A stretch of DNA of 64,000 nt. Origin: Lama guanicoe. Taxonomy: Eukaryota. The position numbers were made by a program, and so were the translations under genes. The stretch lies in contig MU053873.1 in assembly GCA_013239625.1 (NCBI GenBank), forward strand, positions 820,524 to 884,523, written 5' to 3'. Positions 3,215-54,600 of the stretch are shown in pieces. Under the pieces are notes generated by a model. The model searched no databases, had not been told where the DNA came from, and saw only the letters and a list, made by a program, of their open reading frames with translations. Each line of letters begins with the position of its first letter. Position 1 is the stretch's first letter.

Positions 3215-6200
3215 GTCTGGCTCCCGGCTATGAAGGCCAAGGGGTTGGAGATCTCGGGCACCTTCACTCGCCAGGTGGGCTCCATCTCCATGGACCTACA
3301 GCTGACCAACAAAGCCTTGCAGGTCATGACCGACTTCGCCATCCAGTTCAACCGCAACAGGTGAGCTCCCCGAGGCTGCCTGTCTGGAGCCCACGCCAGT
3401 GAGAGCAGGCAGGGGCTGAGGGCTCCCGGGGCCCAGTACCTCTTTTCTCATGAAGAAGAATGTTCCTCGCAACCACATCTCAGGTCAAAATTCTCTAAAG
3501 CAGTGATACCCTCCGCACCCCCATGACCTCTTTATGTGGACAACAGAGTACCTTTATTTTTGCCTTCCCCCAGTGCCCAGAGGGGTATTTTACTGACAAA
3601 ATCCCCAGCTCCAGCTTAGGAGCCTGCCTTTAGTAAGCACCCCACATGCCAGGAGCTCAGAGCCTCCTCTGCAGGCCTGAGTGGCTCGCATCAGCTCCGA
3701 GAAGGCTGATGTGGAGCAGGCCCGCCTGCCAGCCTCCCCTACATGACAGGATTAAACCGTCAGGCAGGGCCCCTGGGAGTGGTGGCTGCTCCAGGCTCCC
3801 GGGGTCGTGGGGAAGGTCTCCTGCTTGGCACCCAGGGTCTTCGTGGACCAGGCCAGCTAGGTCAGGGCTCTGGGGAACCTAAGCAGCCTCTCCTGATGAT
3901 CCTTCTTCCTGAGCGGCTCTAGTGATGAGCAAACTGAGCCTCTAAGAAGTTGACTGAAGGGGCTGCTTCCTCAGGGAGAGCCTGTGGGCTAGTGGTTCCC
4001 GACCCTCTGTCAGACCCGGGAGGGTGGTGGCAGCTCTGCTACTTACCCTCAGGTGACCCTAGAAGCCACAAAACACTCCAGGCTCCAAGGGGTGGTCCTG
4101 ATTATCGCTCATAACAAACTTACTGTGTGTTGAAAACTGTCTGGGTACCAGGCCCTGTGCTGAGACCTTGACAACCCAGTGAGGTCGATGCTATTACCTC
4201 CCTTTTAGTAGGTGATGACACCTGGGCTCAGAGAGGGCAAATGCCTTGCCCAAGGTCACACAGTGGGCAGTGGTAGAGCTCCCAGGAAAGCCTGGGGCAC
4301 TGGGCCACCATGATGGCCTGGGGTTCCCCCACCCCCACAGCAGGTCATCTCCTGCTGTGTCCCAGGCAGGCCTGATCGCTGTCATGGACAGAGCACAGGC
4401 TGGGGTCAGGCAGCTCAAGTGCTGAATCTCAGCGGTGCCACTTACCCTGTAGAGTCTGGGCATAGGCCTGCCCCTCCCTGAGTCTCCATGTCCTGGATGG
4501 TGGGAGATTGTATACCTCCTGCTATTTTTATGATGATAGGAACTATTCTAATATCAAATGCCCAGCCTGGGCCCAGTGAACGCCCAGTTCATGGTCTCAG
4601 TCAATACTGTAGAGACTTAACCTTCCCAGAGCCTGTGGCTGGGGTGTCTCTCACCCACACCCTCTTGGGCAGTTTCCTGATGTGTCCACCTGCTGCTTTA
4701 CCGAGAACTAGGGCTTCCTGAATCTCTCTGTGGTCATCTTATGATCTGCTCTGGCCTAGTCAGTAAAACCGGCATCTCGCTTGGGACGGTCGGATCCCTC
4801 CTGGGAGGTGGGGGTTTGCTCCCAAGTCTTGAGTGGTCACTGAGCTTACAAGTTAGAAGAAGCTTATAGACCCCTGGTATTACGTGGAGCTCCTAGAGGG
4901 CAGGTCAGGGCTGGGCCGCACTAGCCTGAGCCACCCAGAGGACACAGAGGAGCAGAGATGGGCTTTAGGCCTGCAGCCAGCCCAGGGCTGACTTTCTGTC
5001 CATGTGGCCGCTGAGGGGTGGAGGGAGGGTTAGGAGCTTGTCCTCCTGGCCTGGGTCAAGGCCTAGGATGAGGCCAGCTTACTGGAGAGGCTTGCTGCCA
5101 GCTGCTGCCCAGGCTCCAGAGCCCACCTGTCCTGTGTCAGCATCTGCTCCCCTGCCGTCCCCACGGGGGCTTCTCTCTCCCCAGCTTTGGCCTGGCCCCC
5201 GCCGCCCCCCTCCAGGTCCATGCACCGCTCAGCCCCAACCAGACTGTGGAGATCTCCCTGCCTCTCAACACGGTGGGCTCGGTCATGAAGATGGAGCCTC
5301 TGAACAACCTGCAGGTGTGTTCCGGGCAAGACCAAGCACCACAGTCCTTAACGGTCTGCCCTGAGGAGGAGCCTTGGGGAGCAGTCTGGGGCCTGGCTGG
5401 GCTGGGCTGGGCTGTGGAGTCGCACTCTTGGACACAGACCTGGCAGGGGAGGCCAGGTTACGGGGGTGGAGGGTCGTGGCTACCAGGGAAGCTGCGTGAG
5501 GGAACTGGCTCCAGTGGGCTCACAGGGGACAGGTGCTTCCTGGGGCCTCACACGTGGTGCTGAGCATCAGGGGCTAACTGGGGACCCCCTTATTCCTAGG
5601 TGGCCGTAAAGAACAACATTGACGTCTTCTACTTCAGCACCTTGTACCCGCTGCACATCCTCTTTGTGGAGGACGGGAAGATGGGTGAGTCATGAGGGCG
5701 CCCTTGGGGTCCCTAGAATGGATGGATTGGTTTTGCCCCATGATGGAGTCCATAATCACTGGCTCCCCTGCAGAGCCTGGAGTGAGGGTCATACCCTCAC
5801 CGGGGCCCCCGGGGTCTTGTCTGGCCAGCTCTGCCCACCGGTGGCCATGCCATGTGGGAGCTGTCTCATCCTGGGTTCTGCTCTGCCCCTCAGCCTTGCC
5901 TGCAGCCTCTAGACAGTCATCTCACAGGCCCCTCCGAGGCAGGGAACCCAGGCCATGCCTCACACCTGATGCCCATCCTCTATGCCCCGGCTGGAACCCT
6001 TGAGAAGACACCCGACGCCCAGAGGGCTCACTCCTGCCCACATCATCTCTGTCCCCACAGAAGCCCTGTAAAGCAGACTGACTCATGAGCAGGCTGCCTG
6101 GGGCCAGAGCAGGAGGAGGGTGGATGTGGGTGGTGGTGGGGAGAGAGCTAAGGCTCAGAGGTGGGAAGCTGGGGTCTTTTGGGAACAGCACCGCTGGCCA

Positions 6201-11049: not shown

Positions 11050-14000
11050 ATGGAGAGAGTGATTCTGGACCATGGTAAGATCAGTCACACAAAGGTTAAA
11101 AGCTCCCCCTTCCATACTTCCCCAGTTCTTAGCTTTCCTCCCTAGAGGCAAAGTTCTCTGTTACATTTTGGCTTTCTTCCAAAAATAATTCTGTGCATGT
11201 ATAAAGCAAATCCAGGGAGGTATTTACTAAATAAATAGCAGCACACCCTAGATGTTACCAGCACTTTGCTTTCCCTATCAGTAGAGCAGACCCACCTCGG
11301 GATCTCTTGTGCAGAAGGGCAGGTGTCTGCAGGTGGGTTTTCCAGCCGTTTCCATCTTCTGTGAGTCCAAGCAAAGGTGCAGCGAATACCTTCCTACAGA
11401 CATCCTTGCTCGTAGACACACATGAAACTGCAGGATTCAGCCCTGGAATTGCTGGACCAGAGGGTGGAAAGAAGCATTTTACATTTTAAAATTTTGTTCT
11501 TGTATTGAAAAGGTAATGCATTCACATGGTTCAAAATCCAAAAGGCAAAAAGAGATCGAAGTGAAATAATCCTCTCTCTCATTCCTCTCCCTAAAGGAAC
11601 CAGTGTTACCTTCCAAAGAAACTCAACAATGTCTAATATGGTCTTTTCCCTTTTTATACACAAAGGGTGGCATGGACCACGCCCCGATTGGCACTGTACT
11701 TTTATCTTGGAGACTTTTCCATGATTAATCCATTATCAAGAGCGTCCTTGTGCCTTTTTGTAACAACTGTGTGGTTTTCCGTCAAGTGGAGGCACCATAA
11801 TGAACCTGTCCCTTGCCGTGATGTCCAGAGTTGTGTCGGTGGTGGTGTTAGTACAAGTGATACTGCGGAGAACGTTCATTTTCATATGTTGATAAATTTC
11901 TCAGATGGAAATGGCTGGGTCGAAGGTAGGTGTGTTCCTCACTTGATAGCTACTGCTAAAAATTCTCTAGTTTACACCCCCAGCGGCCAGGAATGAAACG
12001 CCTGCTCCCCCGCACCCTCACACACTCAGCATGTTGATACGTGTTTAAGTGACAGGCAAAAAACAGTATCTGACTGTGTTTTAAACACACCTCCGTTCGC
12101 ATGTTACCGAGCCATTTGTCTGTCCTCTGGGAGCTGTCTCCATGGTTTCTGCCATCTTGCGAGATGGCTGTTGGTCCTTGGCTTTCTGGTTGGTCATTAT
12201 TTCTCCCGTTTTGTTACTGTTTTTACTTTTCCATGCTGAAATTGTGTTGTATAATTCTTTTCTCTCTTCTTTTCATCTCTTCTTTCTTTCCAGTACTTGG
12301 CTCGTCTTAGCTGTTGCATTTGGAGCCTGTTCCACGTGGGCTTCATGTTAGGGATGAGGTAGGGATCCAGCTTCCTCTCTTCCCAGATGGTTGGTTACCT
12401 TGTTGTCTCCAGACCATTTACTGAATAATTTATCTTTTCCCTACAGATCTGAAGTGTCATTGGTATCATATACTCAGTTTCCATACACAAATGAGTGCTT
12501 TTCTGGACTCTGTTCTGAACCAGAGAATTTGTGTATTCATTGGCCCCTGTGTTTTTTTTTTTTAAAGCATTGTACCTTTGTATTTTCTTAATTTATAGTG
12601 CCCTCTCTTTCACCCTTTGTATCCCATTTGAACTTTAGAACTAAATTTTTAAGTGATGGTGTTATTTTTATTTGGATCAAATCAAATGTTTATATTAACT
12701 GACAGAGAATTGACATCCTCATGGGGATGTCACTGATAATATTAATCTTTATACCCGAATATAGGAGTATATGTCTTTCCGTTGCTTTCTTTTTACATCT
12801 ATATATTTTAAATTTTCTTCATTTACAAGTGCTTGCATGAACATTTATTCTTACATAGATTTTTGAGTATTTTCTATTTCTTGGTTCCTTTTATAAGTGG
12901 GATCTTTTCCATTCTCTTCTACATATATATATATATGTTTATGTAAATATATATTTGCCAATATAAAACACACAAGTATAGGAATAACATATATTTACAA
13001 TATAAAATAAATAACGTAAATTATATAACATATAACTTGTAAACTAAACGCCAGACTTTATGCAGATTTGACTCGTTTTCCCACTCACGTCCTCGTTCTG
13101 TTCCCAGATCCCACGTTCCATGTGCTCGTCATTATCTCTTGAGCCTCCTCAGGTCTGTGACAGTTTCTCAGCTTTTCTTTATCCTTAACAATTCTGAGGG
13201 CTGGTCAGGTATTCTGTGGACTGTCCCTCAGTTTGGGTTTGTCTGATGTTTCTTATGGTGAGACTAGGGTTACAGGGTTTTAGGAAGGAGACCACAAAGG
13301 TGTCGGGGGACACGCTATCAACATGACTTATCACAGTCACATTAGCCTGGATCACTCGGCCAAGGTCGTTTCCAGCTTCCTCTGCCGTGAAGGGACTTCC
13401 TCCCCTTCCTCAACTCCATTTTTTGGAAGCAAGTCACCAAGTGCAGCCGACACCCATGGAGGAGTATGGAGGCAGGGAGCGGCTACATAAAATATTGGGA
13501 ATTCTTCTGTAAGGAAAATTTGTTTCTTCTGCATTTATTTATTAATTCAATCATTTGTATCAGCTTGGACTCATGGATATTTATTTTATAATTTGGGTTT
13601 TGGGGGAGGGTCATAGCTCAGTGGTAGAGTGCATGTTTAGCATGCACAAGGGCCTAGGTTCAATCCCAGTACCTCCACTAAAAAAAAAAAGACAATATAA
13701 TTTGGGTTTAAACCAAAAGTGCATTAATTATCTTGTTGCTTAAATTGCTCAAGCTGTGATGATTGGGACCTCTTTCAAGTTGGCTGTGTCCCTTTGACGT
13801 GGTTTCATCCTTTGGTTTCTTTTGAGATTTCCTTACTTTCCAATATCATGAGCTGCTGCAGGCTGACCTGTATCTGTCCTGCTCCAGGCCTCACATCAGC
13901 CATTTCTCCAGGGAGCCTGGTTGCTTTTTCAGTATCAGAAACCAAGATCTGGGTGCCAGGTGTGCTAGTTGCTCGTGAGGTGGCACTTCCAGTCCCTCTC

Positions 14001-18200: not shown

Positions 18201-19821
18201 GGATTGAAGGATGAATGTCTGTCCTGGTATTTGTATGTCTCACCCCTTCTGCCCGCCTGAAGTTGCCTTAAACCAGGCCCAAGACCCGGCGATTTTGCAA
18301 AGTGGCTTTTTTTTTTTTCCTTCTTAAATGCCTCTCTATTTGCCTGCCTCCGCTGGTGGGTGAGGATGAATGCCTGGGGGAGCATGGCCTTGCCTCCCTG
18401 AGCAGTAGTGGGAGAGGTTGAAGCCAGGCACAGGGATGTACTTTCTAGGCAGGGGGTCATTCTCTGCTCTTTCATTCCTGTGACCTGCAGCAAAGGTTCG
18501 TCCAGTAATTTGTGCAAAGTCCAGGACAGACTTTGAATACTTGGAGCCAATGTCTTCGAGAAGTGAAGAGGAAAGAGTAGGCAGGATTAAGAAGGGCTTC
18601 CTAGAGGGGGTGGTATTTGGGATAAACCTGGAAGGATGATTGAAGTTTTGATTAAGCAGCACAAACATTCCAGGTAGGAAGGCCTAACCATGTACAGCTG
18701 CCGCCAGTCAGTGGTCTCTGTGGGCTCGGGGAACACGGGCCCAAGGCTTTGTAATTAGGCTTAGAGGCAGTAGTTACCAGTGAAGTCTTCTGGGAAGGGG
18801 TGGGGCCTGACCCGAGATGAGCTGTGGGAAACTGAAGGAGAAGGAAGATGCTAGGGGTGAGGGGAGAGGAGACTCAAGAGTGAAGGAGGGCTGGTGGCTG
18901 ACCTGCTTCAGGCACGGTTTGGAAATTTATACCCCGGCGGCCATGAGGATAGTAGGGCCCAGGGAACTTGGGGGAGAGGAGGCACAGACAAGGATGAGGA
19001 CAGCCAAGGCCTGAGCATGAACTGTGGATTTAGCGTCAAAGGCCCTGCAGAAGGTCCAGGCGTCGGATAGTGGGAAGGGGGCTTAGGGAAACTCCCGCCT
19101 TCCGCCCCCAGGAGTGGCCAGACCCTAAGGATTGGAACTTGCAGGACACGGACGCCTTTGTGCTAGTCTATGACATCTGCAGCCCGGACAGCTTTGACTA
19201 CGTGAAGACGCTGCGGCAGCGCATCGCGGAGACCAGGTGCGGGGCGGTCGGAGCTGCGTATGGGGAGGGGAGCAGTGTTTGCTGGTCTGGTTGGGCCTTT
19301 GCTGGTCTGGTTGGGCCTTTGCCGGAGGCGAGTGGGTGGGTTCTTCCGCCATCCTGGGCCTGGTGTCAAGCCCTCCGAGCCAGACTTCTGTCCGTGGGAG
19401 GTCTCCAGTCTCGTGCGGTCTTTGGGCCAAGCGGGTATAGTGTTTACTGGGGATCTCTGGCCGCGGGAGGGGATGCTCCTGAGTGTATATACCCACGGAC
19501 AGAGGTTTTCTCCGGCCATGGCACAGCGACCCTGATTTCCATCTGGCTCGCAGGCCGGCAGGCGCACCCGAGGCGCCCATCCTCGTGGTGGGCAACAAGC
19601 GGGATCGGCAGCGGCTGCGCTTCGGCCCTCGGCGCACACTGGCCGCCCTGGTGCGCAGGGGCTGGCGCTGCGGCTACCTCGAGTGCTCCGCCAAGTACAA
19701 CTGGCACGTGCTGCGTCTCTTCCGTGAGCTGCTGCGCTGCGCTCTGGTGCGCGCACGCCCTGCGCACCCGGCTCTGCGCCTGCAGGGGGCGCTGCATCCA
19801 GCGCGCTGCAGCCTCATGTGA
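17873..19821 (+). CDS. RASL10A: Ras-like protein family member 10A (RRP22), 203 aa
   Basis: Exons 17873-18091, 19112-19236, 19554-19821 total 612 nt. P-loop GAPGVGKT, G4 GNKRD, G5 ECSAK, C-terminal CAAX CSLM. Confidence 0.97.
19278..19322. repeat. Perfect 20-bp tandem duplication (2.25 copies) in RASL10A intron 2
   Basis: TTTGCTGGTCTGGTTGGGCC x2 followed by TTTGC. Confidence 0.9.
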
Positions 19822-26050: not shown

Positions 26051-28269
26051 TACCAGCCCAGACATCCCATCTCACCCATGCTAGTTCCCTGGGTCCCTTC
26101 CACCGTCCTTGGTCTCCTGGGAAGCAGTTTGGGTGTTTTTAGTTATACCCCTTCCCCAGATAATGGACTCCCTGGGTGAGCCCTGCGGCCTGTCTCCAAG
26201 ACAACTCAGGAAGCGATAGGGGCAGGGGCTGCAAAGTCACCTCCGGTGGAGTAGACCTCCTTAGGTCAGATAAATGAGGCGGGCTTCCTACCCCCAGGGC
26301 TGGCCTTGGGAGGGGAAGATGGCTCTGTTACCCCCACTCAGCGACTGGCTCCTCATCGAATGCGCTTTGTTAACCCTGACCTTAGGGGAACTTGTTTCTT
26401 AGATGAGGACACTGAGGCTCAGAACGGTAGGTGGGTAGCTAAGGCCCATGAGTCTGTTGCTGCAGCCCCAGCTGTGGTAGGGAAGGGCCAGTCCTGGACC
26501 ACCTCTGGCTGTCCAGGTTGGGCACAGAATAAAGGCAGAGGAGGATGGGCGGCAGCCTGGCTCTGGAGGGTTAAGAAGAGCTTGTTTCTTTTTAAACTGC
26601 AGAGGAGGGATCTGGCCCTGGCTGGGACCAGCAGGGAAATCCTGCCCCCAGCTGTGGCTGGGCGGGGCACCAGGCCTGGCTAGGTAGCGGCCTTGCTGGC
26701 CAGGCGGGCAGGGCTGCTTGAGGGGAAGCACCACCACCAAAGGTCAATGCTAAGAACTTTAATAAAGCCCCTACTGTGTGTCAGCCCTGCTATGCGCCCT
26801 TGACCTGAAGAAACCAATGGGTCACCTCTATGAGGGACACTTCTTATGCCCAAACTTGGGCTCAGTCAGAAGAGTAGCTGGTGGAGCCGAGATTTAAACA
26901 ATTACCCTCGTTTGAGGATCAGGGGCATTTGTTGAGGACCTACTGTGTGCCTGACCTCCTGGTGCCAGGCTGTTTATGTACATCATCTGGACTAAGTCCT
27001 CATGACCTTTCAAAAGATGGGCTCTCTCTCTGATACCCAGCTGGTGCAGATCCCACTCTACCTTTCCTCCAGCCCCTCCCCCGTGCAGAGCAAGGAAGGC
27101 CAGCAACTAAAAGTAGTAATAGTTGCGGAATAGTAAGAAATTTAATTCTCAAAATAATCCTATGTGAGAGGATTTTTTTGTGTGTTCTTTTACAATTTAG
27201 GGAAACTGAGGCCCAGAGAGGGCAAGGGATGTGCGTGGTTAGCAGCTGTGTGGGAATCTGACTCTTACTCATGTCTACCTAGACACAGGAGAGGTCAGAC
27301 TGAACCTAAGCCCTGCTGTTGGTCATTGGTTGAGACAGTTAAGCTCTCTAAGCCTCAGCTGGACCATCTGCAAAATGGGGCAACAGTGGTAGTTTCATTA
27401 TAGAATTGTGAAAATGTTATTACTTAGCCCAGTGCAGCCAGAGCTGTGTCCACTACTCCTCTGAGGAGGTGGTGATGGGGTGTGTGTGTTGGGGGGGACT
27501 TTTTCCTCTCCACCTCCATCACAGAGGCCCACTGCTCACCAGATACGTCAACATTCTGATTCTAGGACACGTGGCAGGTGTGGTGCCCACCAGTGTGGCC
27601 AGACCCACAGCCCAGGCCATGGAGGGCCTTGGTTTCAACTCCCTCTGTCGTATGGGGACCTCTCCTCTTCCTTGCAGGACCAAGGGGAGCACAGACACCA
27701 CTAGAGGGATGAGAGTTTTGGGCTATGGTTGTCCTGAGCCCAGACCCCAGAGGGCCACCTCTGAGTCCAGAAGGCTGTTGCTCGCCCGCAGGCTTGGGCC
27801 GGCCCTTGGACAGCGAGTGCATGGTTGGGTTTTGGGCCCCCGCTGCTGGGTGCTGGGGAGCAGCAGCCTACTGGCCTTGGTTGCAGCTGGAGCTTGGATG
27901 ATTCAAGCAAAGCTCTCACTGGCAGGCCCGAGCCCTGGCACCAGGCAACTCAGTCCTGGCTGGGTGCACCTGATGCTCTCCAGGCTAGACTGACCTGTGA
28001 GCACAGCCCAGGATGAGTGAGTCACCCGCAGGGGACTTCAGGCTGCTCCGTCCAGATGTGTGTCCAACCATGGCGACTGCTTCTGCCCTGGCTGTGGGGT
28101 GAGTGACCCCAAGCTTCCCTGAGCTGTCTCCTGTGTCCTCCATGAGGGAGAAGCAAGATCAGAAAGCCCAGGAAGGCCTGCTTTCCAACCAGCCATCACG
28201 CTTTGTCTCCCTGCTTGCCCTGCACCTGGCAACTCTGTCAGGAGGGGGCAGGATGGGGAAGCTTGAGAG

Positions 28270-28933
28270 TCAGTGGTTGGCCCCTGGGAGACCTGGTGTC
28301 TGGCCTTGTCGTTGCACTGTCCTTGGGCCACGATCCTTTCTTCGGAGCAGGTGAGCCAGTCCCTGCGGGCCTTTGTCCACACGTGGGGCAGAGATCAGTC
28401 TCCCACTGACCACGACCTTTGCCTGGGCCTGCGGGGTGTGGCCCTGGGGGACCATGAGTGTGAATGACCAGGAACACTTGAGGGGTTGGAGCACAGTGTG
28501 GAACCGGATTCCCAGCACTCCCACCCCATCCCTGGGCTTCTTTGAGACAGGGCTTGGAACCCATGCTGCCTGGGGGCATCTGAGGTGAGTCCAGACGTTT
28601 TTTGGCTGAGGAACTGGTCTGCCTGATATCAACACCTCCACCCTAGGCCCGGGCACCTGGGACCTAAACCCTTCTCTAGGCAGGGACGCGAGGCCGCTCT
28701 TGGGCGGCCTCAAGGTCCAGGCAGATGGGCAGTGCCTGTCGCACGTGGTGGTTGTCCCTGCAGTCCAGTGAGGGCTGCTTGTAGTTCCCTTGCAGTGGCT
28801 GCAGGCTGGGGAGGTAGCTGATCGGTACCCATTGCTGCTAGGTCCCCCAGCTTTTAGGCAACAAGATACTCTTGTGGAGGGGAAAGTAGGGGAGCGTCTC
28901 ATCTCAGGGGGCTGCCTTCAGCTCTCGCCCCAT
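28270..28933 (-). pseudogene. Candidate degraded coding sequence (unassigned, stop-interrupted)
   Basis: Kozak-context ATG (AGGATGG) at 28933 opens MGRELKAAP*DETLPYFPLHKSILLPKSWGT*QQWVPISYLPSLQPLQGNYKQ...; codons mostly end in G/C by eye. No homology search was run. Confidence 0.35.
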
Positions 28934-30333
28934 CCTCCCACGATGGCAAGATCTGCCTTCTCACCTGAGCAACAGGGGCATATGCTCCACCTACAGGAGT
29001 GGTTAGGAATTGGATGTGTTGAGGCAGTGCTTGGCTAGACACAGGGGCCCAGGGATGTTTTGGTTATTGACATTTTTGGTTATGTTTGGGCCTCAGGGCT
29101 GTGAACTCTGGCTCTGATGCCTGTCAAGGCTGAGGTGGGGGCATCCTTGGCCCCATGGCAGGACTGCAGGGAAGAGAGCAGAGCAGGGCAGCTCAGGTCA
29201 CAGGGGCCTGAGGGAGGCCTGCTCTCATGGGGACTCATGGGTCTTGGCCAGCGTGGTAGAAGCCCCTGGAGGGTTTCAAGAATGGCAGGGACTTAAGGTG
29301 TCAAAAATTCAGCCTCTGGGGTGGAAGGGCTAGAGGGGCCTAGGGAACCAGGGAGCCCAGCCAGTGTGGAGGTGGGTGGCGTGGTGTCTCTTGGGCTGTG
29401 CTGTATTTTGTAGCACGTGATGGTTTAGGTTGGGGTCTGAGAGAACGGGAGTCAAGACTCCAAGGTTCTGGACAAGGGGACAAGCACTTCATTTGCTGAG
29501 ATGGGGTGGAGGAAGGGGTAGGGCAGGATCCAGCCCAGCTTTAGGCCCACTGGACCCCCAGGAGGAGCTGGCACCTGGGAGGAAGGTGTGATGTCAGCAG
29601 CACAGTTGGCCGGAGGTCAGCCAGGCAGTGAGGGGGTCAGAGGAGCCCCAACACCAGCCTGGGCCCCCCCCCTTCATTTAAAGGTCAGGAAGAGGAGGGC
29701 AGCAGAAGCCAGAGAGCTCAGAAGGAACCATCACTGATCTGGTACGCGGAGGTCGTTACTGTTGCAGTAGAGGCAAAAGCCTGATTAGAAATGGGCTCTA
29801 GAAAGGGAGAGGAGGTGGACACAGAGGAACCTCTTTAAAGAGTTTCAAAATTCAGTGAACAGCCTAACTCCGTAACATCAAGGAAGCACCAATAACCTGA
29901 GTAGGAAGAAAATTATAAAAATGGCCCCCCATCTTTAGCCGTCAGTCACTGAGGCAGGCCTGCCTTGTTCTGCAGTGTGTGGAGCCTCACGTGCCCCCAA
30001 CCCCGCCGCTGCCGGGAGGGGCATTCACAAAGGGCCTTCGGAGGGCTCCCAGCCCGAGACCCCAGCACAGTGCTCCCGACAGCAGATCAGAGGCCTGGGC
30101 TACAACGTCCCCATGCTCTGAGACACGGCTCGGGGCGAACCCCCTTTCCGTGCCGGCGGCAGCACCGCGTCTAGCACTGCGCTGTCTGGTCCTGACGGCC
30201 CTGATTCCCCGCACACTCCCCACCACGGCGCCTGAGCCAGCAGCGACCTGGGTGGAGGGGGAGGCTCCGAGGAGACGAGCAGCGGCTGCGGAACAGAGGC
30301 TGAGAAGGATGACTGTTTATAAACATTTGGAAT

Positions 30334-51600: not shown

Positions 51601-54600
51601 AATTTAAACATAATAAAATAGGCAGAAGGAACAAGCATGGAGCAAGGCACCTAACTTGAGAAACAATACCAGAAAGGAAAGGAGAGCTAGTAACTCCCAG
51701 TTTGAGGACAGTTTCATTTACAATGACATCCCCTTTCAAAGTTTAAATGCCTGTGCATTTTATGATTACAAGCACATTATACTTTCTTATTACCTAGTTT
51801 TTGAAAAAGATCTGTGCTACCTACTGTTTTAATGGCTGACAAAAATATTTTACTTCGGGGTGCAGCCACATATAATTATCCTAAAGATTACCTGGGTGGT
51901 CTGTGCATATCCTTGAGTGGGCTGGGCGGTGTAAGCACTGTAGCTGTAAGAGAAATTAAATGCAAAAACTGAATAGAGAACATCCAGATTCCATTACTAA
52001 ATCCTCTACAACTAGACAAAACTCTGTACTCTATAAAAAAACAACCAATCATATCCAAAGTACTGTTGTAAAAGTCTGACTTACCCCTGCTGGGCTGCAG
52101 CCTGGCTGTAGGTACTATAATCTAGAGAAAACAAGGAGAGAAGAAAATAGGGTGAAGCCAGCATTTACAAGGAAAAAGGAGGGGAGGAATTCAGGTGGCA
52201 GGAAGATGAGTATTTTTAACCTGTATTGAGAGGATCTACAGGACAACACAGGTCCATTCAAATGAGTACCTCTTATCTCTCAACACCAAACCAAAAAATA
52301 AGTCTAGGCTAGTTAACCTCAGAAAATTTGAATATACTGCTAGCTAATGATATCAAGGTCAGCTGATTTGGCAAAGATACTTTGCATGTTCCCATAACCA
52401 CAAACCCCCCTTAACCACAGGCTGTCACTTCAAATACATGATCAACATCCTAAGACTAACAGAACAAGGTAAACCCAAGAAGATCTAAAGTTTTATCTTC
52501 ATATAAAAAGAAGGCATGTAGGTGGGGAGGGTATAGCTCAAGTGGTAGAGTGCATGCTTAGCATGCACCAGGTCCTAGGTTCAATCCCCAGTACCTCTTA
52601 TAAAAATAAATAAATAAACCTAATTACCTCCCCCTGCACCCTCCTCCAAAAGGGCATGTAACAATATTACAATGTTGAACATGAGAATGGTTACATTAGT
52701 AGCTACATCTCCTCAAAAACTTTTTTTTTAAATCACTCCCTCACTTGAACAAGTTAGACCAACCATAACTTCCTCAGGACTGCGAAATACAGGGCAGAAA
52801 ACAAGAGGGCAGTCATCTCAATCCAGTGCCCCAGAGGGTTTGCTGACTGTATCAGGGCTACATGTGTAGAATAACTAAAGAAACTAAAAGCATTATGAGT
52901 CCCAGCAAAGAAGAGTTCAGGCAGAATCATGCTAACTGGCAGAGGTGAAAGCATTTAATCTTTTGGGGAATAATCTGGTTTTAGAAGCATCTTTTAAAAA
53001 CTCAAGTGACTCCAACTAAAAAATAACCCCCCCCCACAATTTTTCTTCCCCATCTCCCCTCTTTCTGAATAAACCATTCTAAAATTTTCCTTTTTGTATG
53101 ACATTTACATGCACAGAAAGGGACTTATAACCCCCTCTAGTCTACGGAGGTGTCTACAAGAAGTAAAAACAGTAAGTTTTCATGGCACTACTAGATTAAC
53201 ATATATATTTTAAAGAAGTCAAAGTAATTATTTTTTAAAAACCCTGCCTAATTCTTTGCTCTCCACAAGAATTACACATCCTATTCTATGTTAGAAGACA
53301 ATACTGCCATTGAGGCTGACCAGGTCTTTCCAATCACAAAGCAGTCTCTCATCTGCAAGAACATCTGATAGCTCTTCACAGAGGGGTTTCAATCCCTACT
53401 CTATCCAAAGTCTGCCTCACAGGTCACCTGGCCTGGCCGGAGGGCATTTTGCTGAACCCATCACTTTAAGGTGGCTTTCACCTCTCCACACTTCACTCGA
53501 CCACTTTCCTTCCTCTGTATACCCTTAACTCAGAACCCTGAATCACCAATATTATCAAATCAACTGCCAAAGGTTATCCATAATGAACAAACTGATTTGT
53601 TCAACATAATCTTAGCTCTCTATGTGACAAAAAGTAAATGCAAATCACTTCTTCTCCGTGGTAGTCACAAAATAAACACACCAGTGAAGTATCAAAAATC
53701 AAGTATTCCAAATCGCTGACATGTTAAGTTCAAATGTTTGCAAGAGGATGTTGCTTTTTCACACAAGTGCAGTTATGTAAAATGTAAAACTGGCAAAGAT
53801 GATACGGAACAACGATCTCAGATCAGTGGGAAACCAGTTGATTTAGCCCCATACTGGTGGGCTAAAGGAGGTAGCAAAAGAGTTTCATGAGAACTTATGT
53901 TATCTATCTACAGCATACAAATATTACATGGCTTCAAAAATCTACAGCTATACATTGGTCAGATTATTTAGTAGTTACGCTGTTCTTTAATTTCTAAACG
54001 TGCAGCTGAAGACTACCCTAAAAAATCAGGTCAGGTTGAGGAGAGAGGGGGCTGTGATCTAGGGGGGCCTCCAGAGTGCTCACAATGTTCTATTTCTTGG
54101 TCTGACCAGTGGTTACTTGGGAGTCTGTTGTAATTTTTTGTTCAAGTGGCCAGAAACTTAAAGTACTTTTCTACATATGCTATACATGAGGAAGAAAGCC
54201 ATCTAGCATTATCCAAGGTGGTGGCTTTTAAAAGATACTTTAGGGCAGTCACAGTCCCAACTGTAGAGATTTAGAGCTCCAGACTACATCATGAGTTAGT
54301 CACTATGGGACAACTTCGTGGGAGCCAAAACGCTTTTCTGTAAGGTCAGAATCTAAGGGCTCAAAAAGCTCTTAAAAGGTCTAGCCTAACTCCTTCATTC
54401 TGAATGAAAGGAAACCAAAGTCCAGGTAAGTTACATGACTCCCCAAAGGTCCCCCAGCCAGGCCTAACTACTGTGTGCCTGCATAAACCACAACTGTAAT
54501 TCTAATATAGTATGTAGGTGGTTACCAGTAAACAGTCTGAGCAAAATAGATAAAAAAAAATTGGACTGTCCAGCCATACACAAATGTGAACACGTATTTA

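Follow-up and report, generated by a model that had tools for sequence, protein, structure and literature searches.

In a 64,000-nucleotide window of Lama guanicoe DNA (the whole stretch analyzed), a 600-base stretch that a first-pass annotation had put forward as a dead gene is probably ordinary GC-rich spacer in the gap separating the EWSR1 end from the GAS2L1 start, a reading to which we give a probability of about 0.55. The reading frames, stop codons, and sequence motifs to which the annotation pointed do exist, and all of them except a codon-phase bias occur at background frequency. Four of the five sequence arguments given for a gene are at chance level. The codon-phase bias, which concerns two adjacent minus-strand stretches (blocks A and B; Table 1), is real, borderline, and model-dependent; the outcome of the tests differs with model order, scan length, and the choice of segment.

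From their translations, we take the genes in the window to be AP1B1 (3′ end), RASL10A, GAS2L1, EWSR1, and RHBDD3, with EMID1 at the edge. This naming agrees with a CH domain found in a GAS2L1 exon (Pfam, E 2.5e-14) and with SNORD125 at 3876–3972. The distance from the EWSR1 poly(A) signal to GAS2L1 exon 1 is ~4.3 kb, and the candidate stretch lies within this gap. The spacer is ~60% GC and has a strong excess of TpG/CpA. A CpG-rich patch follows closely on the EWSR1 poly(A) signal and precedes block A by 1.1 kb. The interval 30338–25700 lacks AATAAA on the minus strand, where ATTAAA is present at 27146 and 26763 only. A stretch at ~27420–27330, near the blocks, is presumably MIR-like. In the accessible parts of the pig and human gene lists, the gene order is that of the window (PMC10034349; PMC13549434; PMC11728112), and the positional lists place zero genes between EWSR1 and GAS2L1 (PMC10034349; PMC13549434).

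Table 1. Features in and around the spacer between EWSR1 and GAS2L1 (positions in the 64,000-nucleotide window).
Feature	Position	Strand	Description
Block A	28679..28933	-	85-codon frame from ATG 28933, closed by TAG at 28678
Block B	28330..28548	-	73 codons, in a frame different from that of block A
Block C	27540..27700	-	161-nt exon-like stretch
215-codon stop-free frame	28273..28917	-	First ATG at 28902
Branch-point-like hexamer and AG acceptor-like site	28991..29007	-	AG ranked 7th among 229 in 3 kb
Strongest donor-like site of the interval	28959..28967	-	1st of 137, after 28965
CpG-rich patch	30051..30300	.	GC 0.69, 21 CpG, observed/expected 0.70
EWSR1 poly(A) signal AATAAA	30339		EWSR1 side of the gap
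GAS2L1 exon 1 donor	25728		GAS2L1 side of the gap

The letters of the proposed gene are as they had been described. The ATG at 28933 has a strong Kozak context (A at −3 and G at +4), the 85-codon translation quoted for it was reproduced, the stops are found at TGA 28906, TAG 28840, and TAG 28678, and the second, shifted frame is present at 28548–28330. What had been built on these letters is another matter. That each stop is one transition away from a sense codon had been taken as a sign of decay; this holds for three of the three stop codons, and the argument is empty because every stop codon has a sense neighbor one transition away. The stop count of block A is at chance level, with two internal stops in 85 codons vs. 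2.81 expected from the background, where 3.3% of triplets are stops; the two remaining minus-strand frames over block A have one and three. Nor is the strong-Kozak ATG evidence of a gene, given that the RnnATGG motif was counted 57 times over 27,930 bases of background (2.0 per kb). On the minus strand of 30250–27300, this motif is found 11 times. Block B is the terminal part of a 215-codon stop-free frame (28917–28273), which overlaps block A out of frame. Among 875 background frames, one is equally long and two reach 200 codons. The first half of the 215-codon frame is without phase bias of its own.

Splice sites were scored with approximate splice tables and were ranked among the 229 AGs and 137 donors of ~3 kb. 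The first-pass annotation had proposed a branch point and an acceptor upstream of the ATG. The hexamer (29007–29002) and the AG (28992–28991) exist, and the acceptor at 28990 ranks seventh. Block C had been described as a well-bounded exon-like block, and it does have an AG before 27700 and a GT after 27540, but equal pairs are common in the background, with 39 acceptor-donor pairs in 27.9 kb that score at least as high. The acceptor of block C (27700) is weak, ranking 25th of 229, and its donor (27540) is third of 137. The top-ranked donor (after 28965) is located between the proposed acceptor at 28990 and the ATG at 28933. Paired with a strong acceptor at 29163, it gives scores (7.0 and 6.5) similar to those of the window's true sites. 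If 29163–28965 were an exon-like unit, the ATG at 28933 would fall in an intron.

GC contents at codon positions 1, 2, and 3 are 0.64, 0.43, and 0.78 in block A and 0.67, 0.47, and 0.70 in block B. The G/C-biased third positions that had been reported are thus present in both blocks, but their excess over chance is borderline and fades in an order-2 model. In simulations, a segment as biased as block A arose in 4.3 kb with P 0.075 when the ends were fixed and 0.01 when the best segment was taken (400 simulations); in 17.6 kb, the corresponding values were 0.32 and 0.085 (200 simulations). Phase models of orders 0, 1, and 2 were trained on 11 true exon pieces from the window (~1,135 codons). 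The joint phase score of blocks A and B tops eight of eight real background regions in all three models (42.3 vs. 34.1, 53.4 vs. 51.4, and 57.4 vs. 54.9). Per 4.3-kb interval, the joint bias has P 0.020, 0.028, and 0.18 for orders 0, 1, and 2 (400 simulations), and the window-wide values are 0.07–0.08, 0.13–0.15, and 0.57–0.62 (150 simulations of 17 kb each). In a best-segment test, the region reaches 12–16 bits, under the simulated mean of 19.5–20.7.

The per-codon contrast at order 0 is 0.27 for block A and 0.25 for block B, and the 11 true exon pieces span −0.01 to 0.49. By codon log-odds, block A is within the top 1.0% of 4,668 segments of the sequence; its value of 0.045 bits per codon is near the bottom of the range of true exons (0.015–0.54). 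Unlike real exons, block A has no surplus of G at first codon positions (20 of 85 codons vs. 93/210 and 112/342 in GAS2L1 exons). Its third bases include 35 C vs. 7 T. Over 28933–28330, there are 18 CpG in 604 nt vs. a mean of 9.6, a count that 3.8% of background segments reach. Within 17.6 kb, GC3 peaks comparably at just one other place, which is in the gene body of GAS2L1 and is likely a real exon. Block C shows no phase bias above background. GC-biased gene conversion was set aside as a source of the bias, as it raises GC at all noncoding positions and yields no phase.

The first-pass annotation had named protein and profile searches as a check on the candidate, and no significant protein match was found in any search run. 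In Pfam, none of seven pieces matched, and the six frames of 27300–30200 gave no match at E 1 (0/6) and no reverse transcriptase, endonuclease, transposase, gag, or env; four further short pieces gave one sub-threshold match only (11.2 bits vs. a cut-off of 25), and a GAS2L1 control exon was positive. Word-index protein searches found no relative among 23 candidates for block A (150–2000 aa), 37 for block B (129–2000 aa), or 219 for the 215-codon frame (118–377 aa). For phmmer, block A with X at the stops was used as the query against 1.84 billion protein representatives. Four matches were returned and rejected; these are tandem-repeat proteins with summed weak matches, the best single stretch having 3.5–15.9 bits. 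There were no matches among PDB sequences or plasmids. Contigs scanned with block A or B were likewise without a match in metagenomes (0/238), viral sequences (0/15), and prokaryote genomes (0/177), and a pattern from the EWSR1 3′-UTR detected no host contigs in the contig collections. A viral locus that was one of 10 pattern matches (E 4e-4 among candidates only) was discarded because the frame involved has 41 codons and runs antisense to a phage ORF of 302 codons. Protein searches can miss orthologues that are distant or unannotated, and the vertebrate coverage of the collections was uncontrolled.

Searches at the nucleotide and structure levels covered other possible origins. In Rfam, the three matches to 27300–30300 are all far under the cut-off (12.8–22.2 bits vs. 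40–70). No second copy of the blocks was found in the 64 kb, where the best self-match (E 0.029) lies outside them, and there are no terminal repeats or long inverted repeats. Marks of a retrocopy are absent, with no A-run longer than six in 29000–27540 and no pair of direct repeats bracketing the blocks, and no parent protein of a retrocopy appeared in the protein or Pfam searches. In the ESM Atlas, the 215-codon frame had no usable match, and the best value for block B (0.85, to unnamed clusters) is at a level often reached by shuffled proteins. Single-sequence AlphaFold2 models, made without an alignment, were of low confidence (mean pLDDT 55.1 and 53.5), and Foldseek found no fold match for them at E 0.001, which is weak evidence either way. 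Among 24 listed sequencing runs, 14 contain 0.91–0.95 of the words of 27300–29300 (n = 216), and six have small word shares (0.05–0.09) that are no evidence of expression.

C22orf31, whose N-terminus block A had been said to resemble, is an uncharacterized gene between ZNRF3 and KREMEN1. A hand count against an unverified string for that N-terminus gives 8 identities in 16 residues. These drop to 7/16 if the residue supplied by assumption at the first stop is left uncounted. With BLOSUM62 values, the 16-residue match would amount to ~20 bits, and it would lie near both N-termini. Such a match would be trivial against a whole proteome and may be less so for two sequences five genes apart and matching near both N-termini. 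If the string is correct, the resemblance would be a further coincidence that the spacer reading has to accept. As to known families, no Pfam family was above the cut-off for any piece or frame, and HMMER filters drop short weak matches. In the accessible parts of the pig and human lists, C22orf31 is five genes away from the candidate (PMC10034349; PMC13549434). The accessible parts of five other sources contain only gene lists and a testis-tumor signature in which C22orf31 is included (PMC10613852; PMC10378754; PMC10298883; PMC9172153; bioRxiv 10.1101/2022.04.26.489536).

Unitary pseudogenes detected by whole-genome PhyloCSF, such as TMEM274P, PFN5P, and the crescent remnant, offer a published comparison (Mudge et al., 2019; PMC6886504). 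As far as the accessible parts of that work go, they and blocks A and B are alike in being unannotated and intergenic and in having premature stops and a coding-like composition, though in blocks A and B the stops are at chance level and the bias is borderline. However, every one of the published cases is backed either by an orthologue that is intact or by a codon signal across species, whereas no orthologue of blocks A and B was found in the collections searched. In the supplementary files that were accessible (PMC6886504), the locus is absent from the 44 unitary pseudogenes of Data S3, whose sole chr22 row is at 21.66 Mb; Data S6 has no PhyloCSF candidate starting at 29.29–29.31 Mb (presumed human coordinates) among the 2,130 rows listed, in which a positive control was found; and Data S1 has no row at the presumed coordinates, a result without a positive control. 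The names EWSR1, GAS2L1, and C22orf31 are absent from seven files of the same work. Literature searches listed no paper on any gene or pseudogene within the EWSR1-GAS2L1 interval. When the candidate is compared with chance frames in GC-rich mammalian intergenic DNA, its stop density, Kozak ATGs, splice pairs, and long frames match the window background, but the joint phase bias of blocks A and B is at the top, not in the middle, of the background distribution.

If the stretch is spacer, two neighboring segments of ~60% GC DNA would carry modest codon-like phase by chance. The bias may then represent the upper tail for trinucleotide-skewed mammalian DNA, in which six frames of ~17 kb were scanned and the ends chosen afterwards. 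Any RNA across the stretch would be EWSR1 run-on or an upstream GAS2L1 transcript, and no protein would be made. Several observations count against spacer, namely, the joint score of blocks A and B above all eight background regions, the per-codon contrast inside the range of true exons, the doubled CpG, the CpG-rich patch upstream, and the location in GAS2L1 of the sole comparable GC3 peak. It is possible, though doubtful, that blocks A and B are instead what is left of a coding exon from a gene that evolved fast and was lost (a unitary pseudogene), perhaps a local paralogue of C22orf31. Transcription would have started from the CpG-rich patch that follows EWSR1, the exon would have been entered via the acceptor at 28990 or at 28964, and the damage would consist of two nonsense mutations plus one or more frameshifts located between 28680 and 28550. 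Two adjacent phase-biased blocks on the same strand, ranking first against the eight background regions with P 0.02–0.03 per 4.3 kb at orders 0–1, point toward such a gene, as do the preference for C over T at the third bases of block A, the CpG content, and the upstream patch. We retain this explanation mainly for the proximity of C22orf31, five genes away, and for the N-terminal placing of the 8 identities in an unverified, hand-counted match of 16 residues. The phase signal, however, fades under the order-2 model, the minus strand offers ATTAAA in place of AATAAA, and no homologue was found in any collection searched; the locus is also missing from the 44 entries of Data S3, in the accessible files (PMC6886504). 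Had the gene died recently, close intact orthologues would be expected and phmmer should detect them. Had it died long ago, much of the GC3 bias would be retained, but, at general mammalian indel rates, frameshifts would probably have accumulated beyond the one or two that linking blocks A and B requires. Neither argument is tight. No homologue was found and four of the five arguments of the first-pass annotation are at chance level. The pseudogene is an unsupported reading that may still hold, since the searches could miss a short relic that evolved fast, as they could a fast-evolving gene left intact in marsupials or reptiles alone. In a more specific version, about which we are equally hesitant, the two blocks would be the fossil of a vertebrate gene so far undescribed, a local paralogue of C22orf31 once situated between EWSR1 and GAS2L1, lost in placentals or in this lineage and intact in marsupials or reptiles, where it would be unannotated or too diverged for detection.

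In mammalian spacers, coding-like traces stem most often from old elements, and coding remains of an ancient transposable element or endogenous retroelement would produce a phase bias without any host gene. The nearby, presumably MIR-like stretch is in line with this origin. We nevertheless consider it very unlikely, given that Pfam detected none of the five element-derived domains in the six frames, that neither a second copy nor terminal or long inverted repeats were found, and that a GC content of 60% combined with raised CpG sets the stretch apart from most decayed elements. The explanation that we rate lowest is a live unit, which may be a 210-residue frame from the ATG at 28902, a short peptide, or a spliced noncoding RNA with exons such as 29163–28965 and 27700–27540. 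The long stop-free frame and the 29163/28965 pair, which scores as the true sites do, are consistent with it, but no similar gene call was found among the 219 candidates, frames of at least 200 codons also occur in the background (2/875), the first half of the frame shows no phase bias, and the low-confidence models without a fold match weigh little either way.

If the stretch is spacer, it serves as a calibration case: in GC-rich mammalian DNA, stops one transition away from sense, an ATG in Kozak context, and a pair of splice-like sites do not amount to evidence for a dead gene. If the two blocks are instead the relic of a gene, a much-studied locus would have one more lost gene, and the uncharacterized C22orf31 would gain a relative and a conserved N-terminal motif. 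Two features of the interval, the 215-codon frame and the strongest donor (28959–28967), had both been overlooked in the first-pass annotation.

Within the gap between EWSR1 and GAS2L1, the top exon-like pair was found on the minus strand at 29163-28965, with an acceptor score of 7.0, a donor score of 6.5 (both from approximate splice tables), and a spacing of 199 nt. A Kozak ATG inside it, at 29156, opens a frame of only 10 codons. This pair may delimit a non-coding exon, which would belong to run-on RNA from EWSR1. Immediately past the EWSR1 poly(A) signal, a CpG-rich patch (30051-30300; GC 0.69, 21 CpG, observed/expected 0.70) could be part of the terminator region, or else act as an enhancer or as a promoter lying upstream. 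Beside block C, an exon-like stretch of the same gap, the sequence at about 27420-27330 appears MIR-like. Toward GAS2L1, a donor-like site at 26076 (minus strand), ~350 nt upstream of the exon-1 donor, possibly marks an alternative first exon of this gene.

Rfam matches to small RNAs are listed in the table; the two tRNA-like matches are likely the heads of tRNA-derived SINEs. Inside RASL10A, an exact tandem duplication at 19278-19322 (20-nt unit, 2.2 copies) apparently sits in an intron.

Small-RNA matches to Rfam
Feature	Position	Strand	Score (bits)	Remark
SNORD125	3876-3972	+	116.8	AP1B1 intron
tRNA-like match	13607-13677	+	29.3	barely at Rfam cut-off
tRNA-like match	52527-52599	+	33	barely at Rfam cut-off
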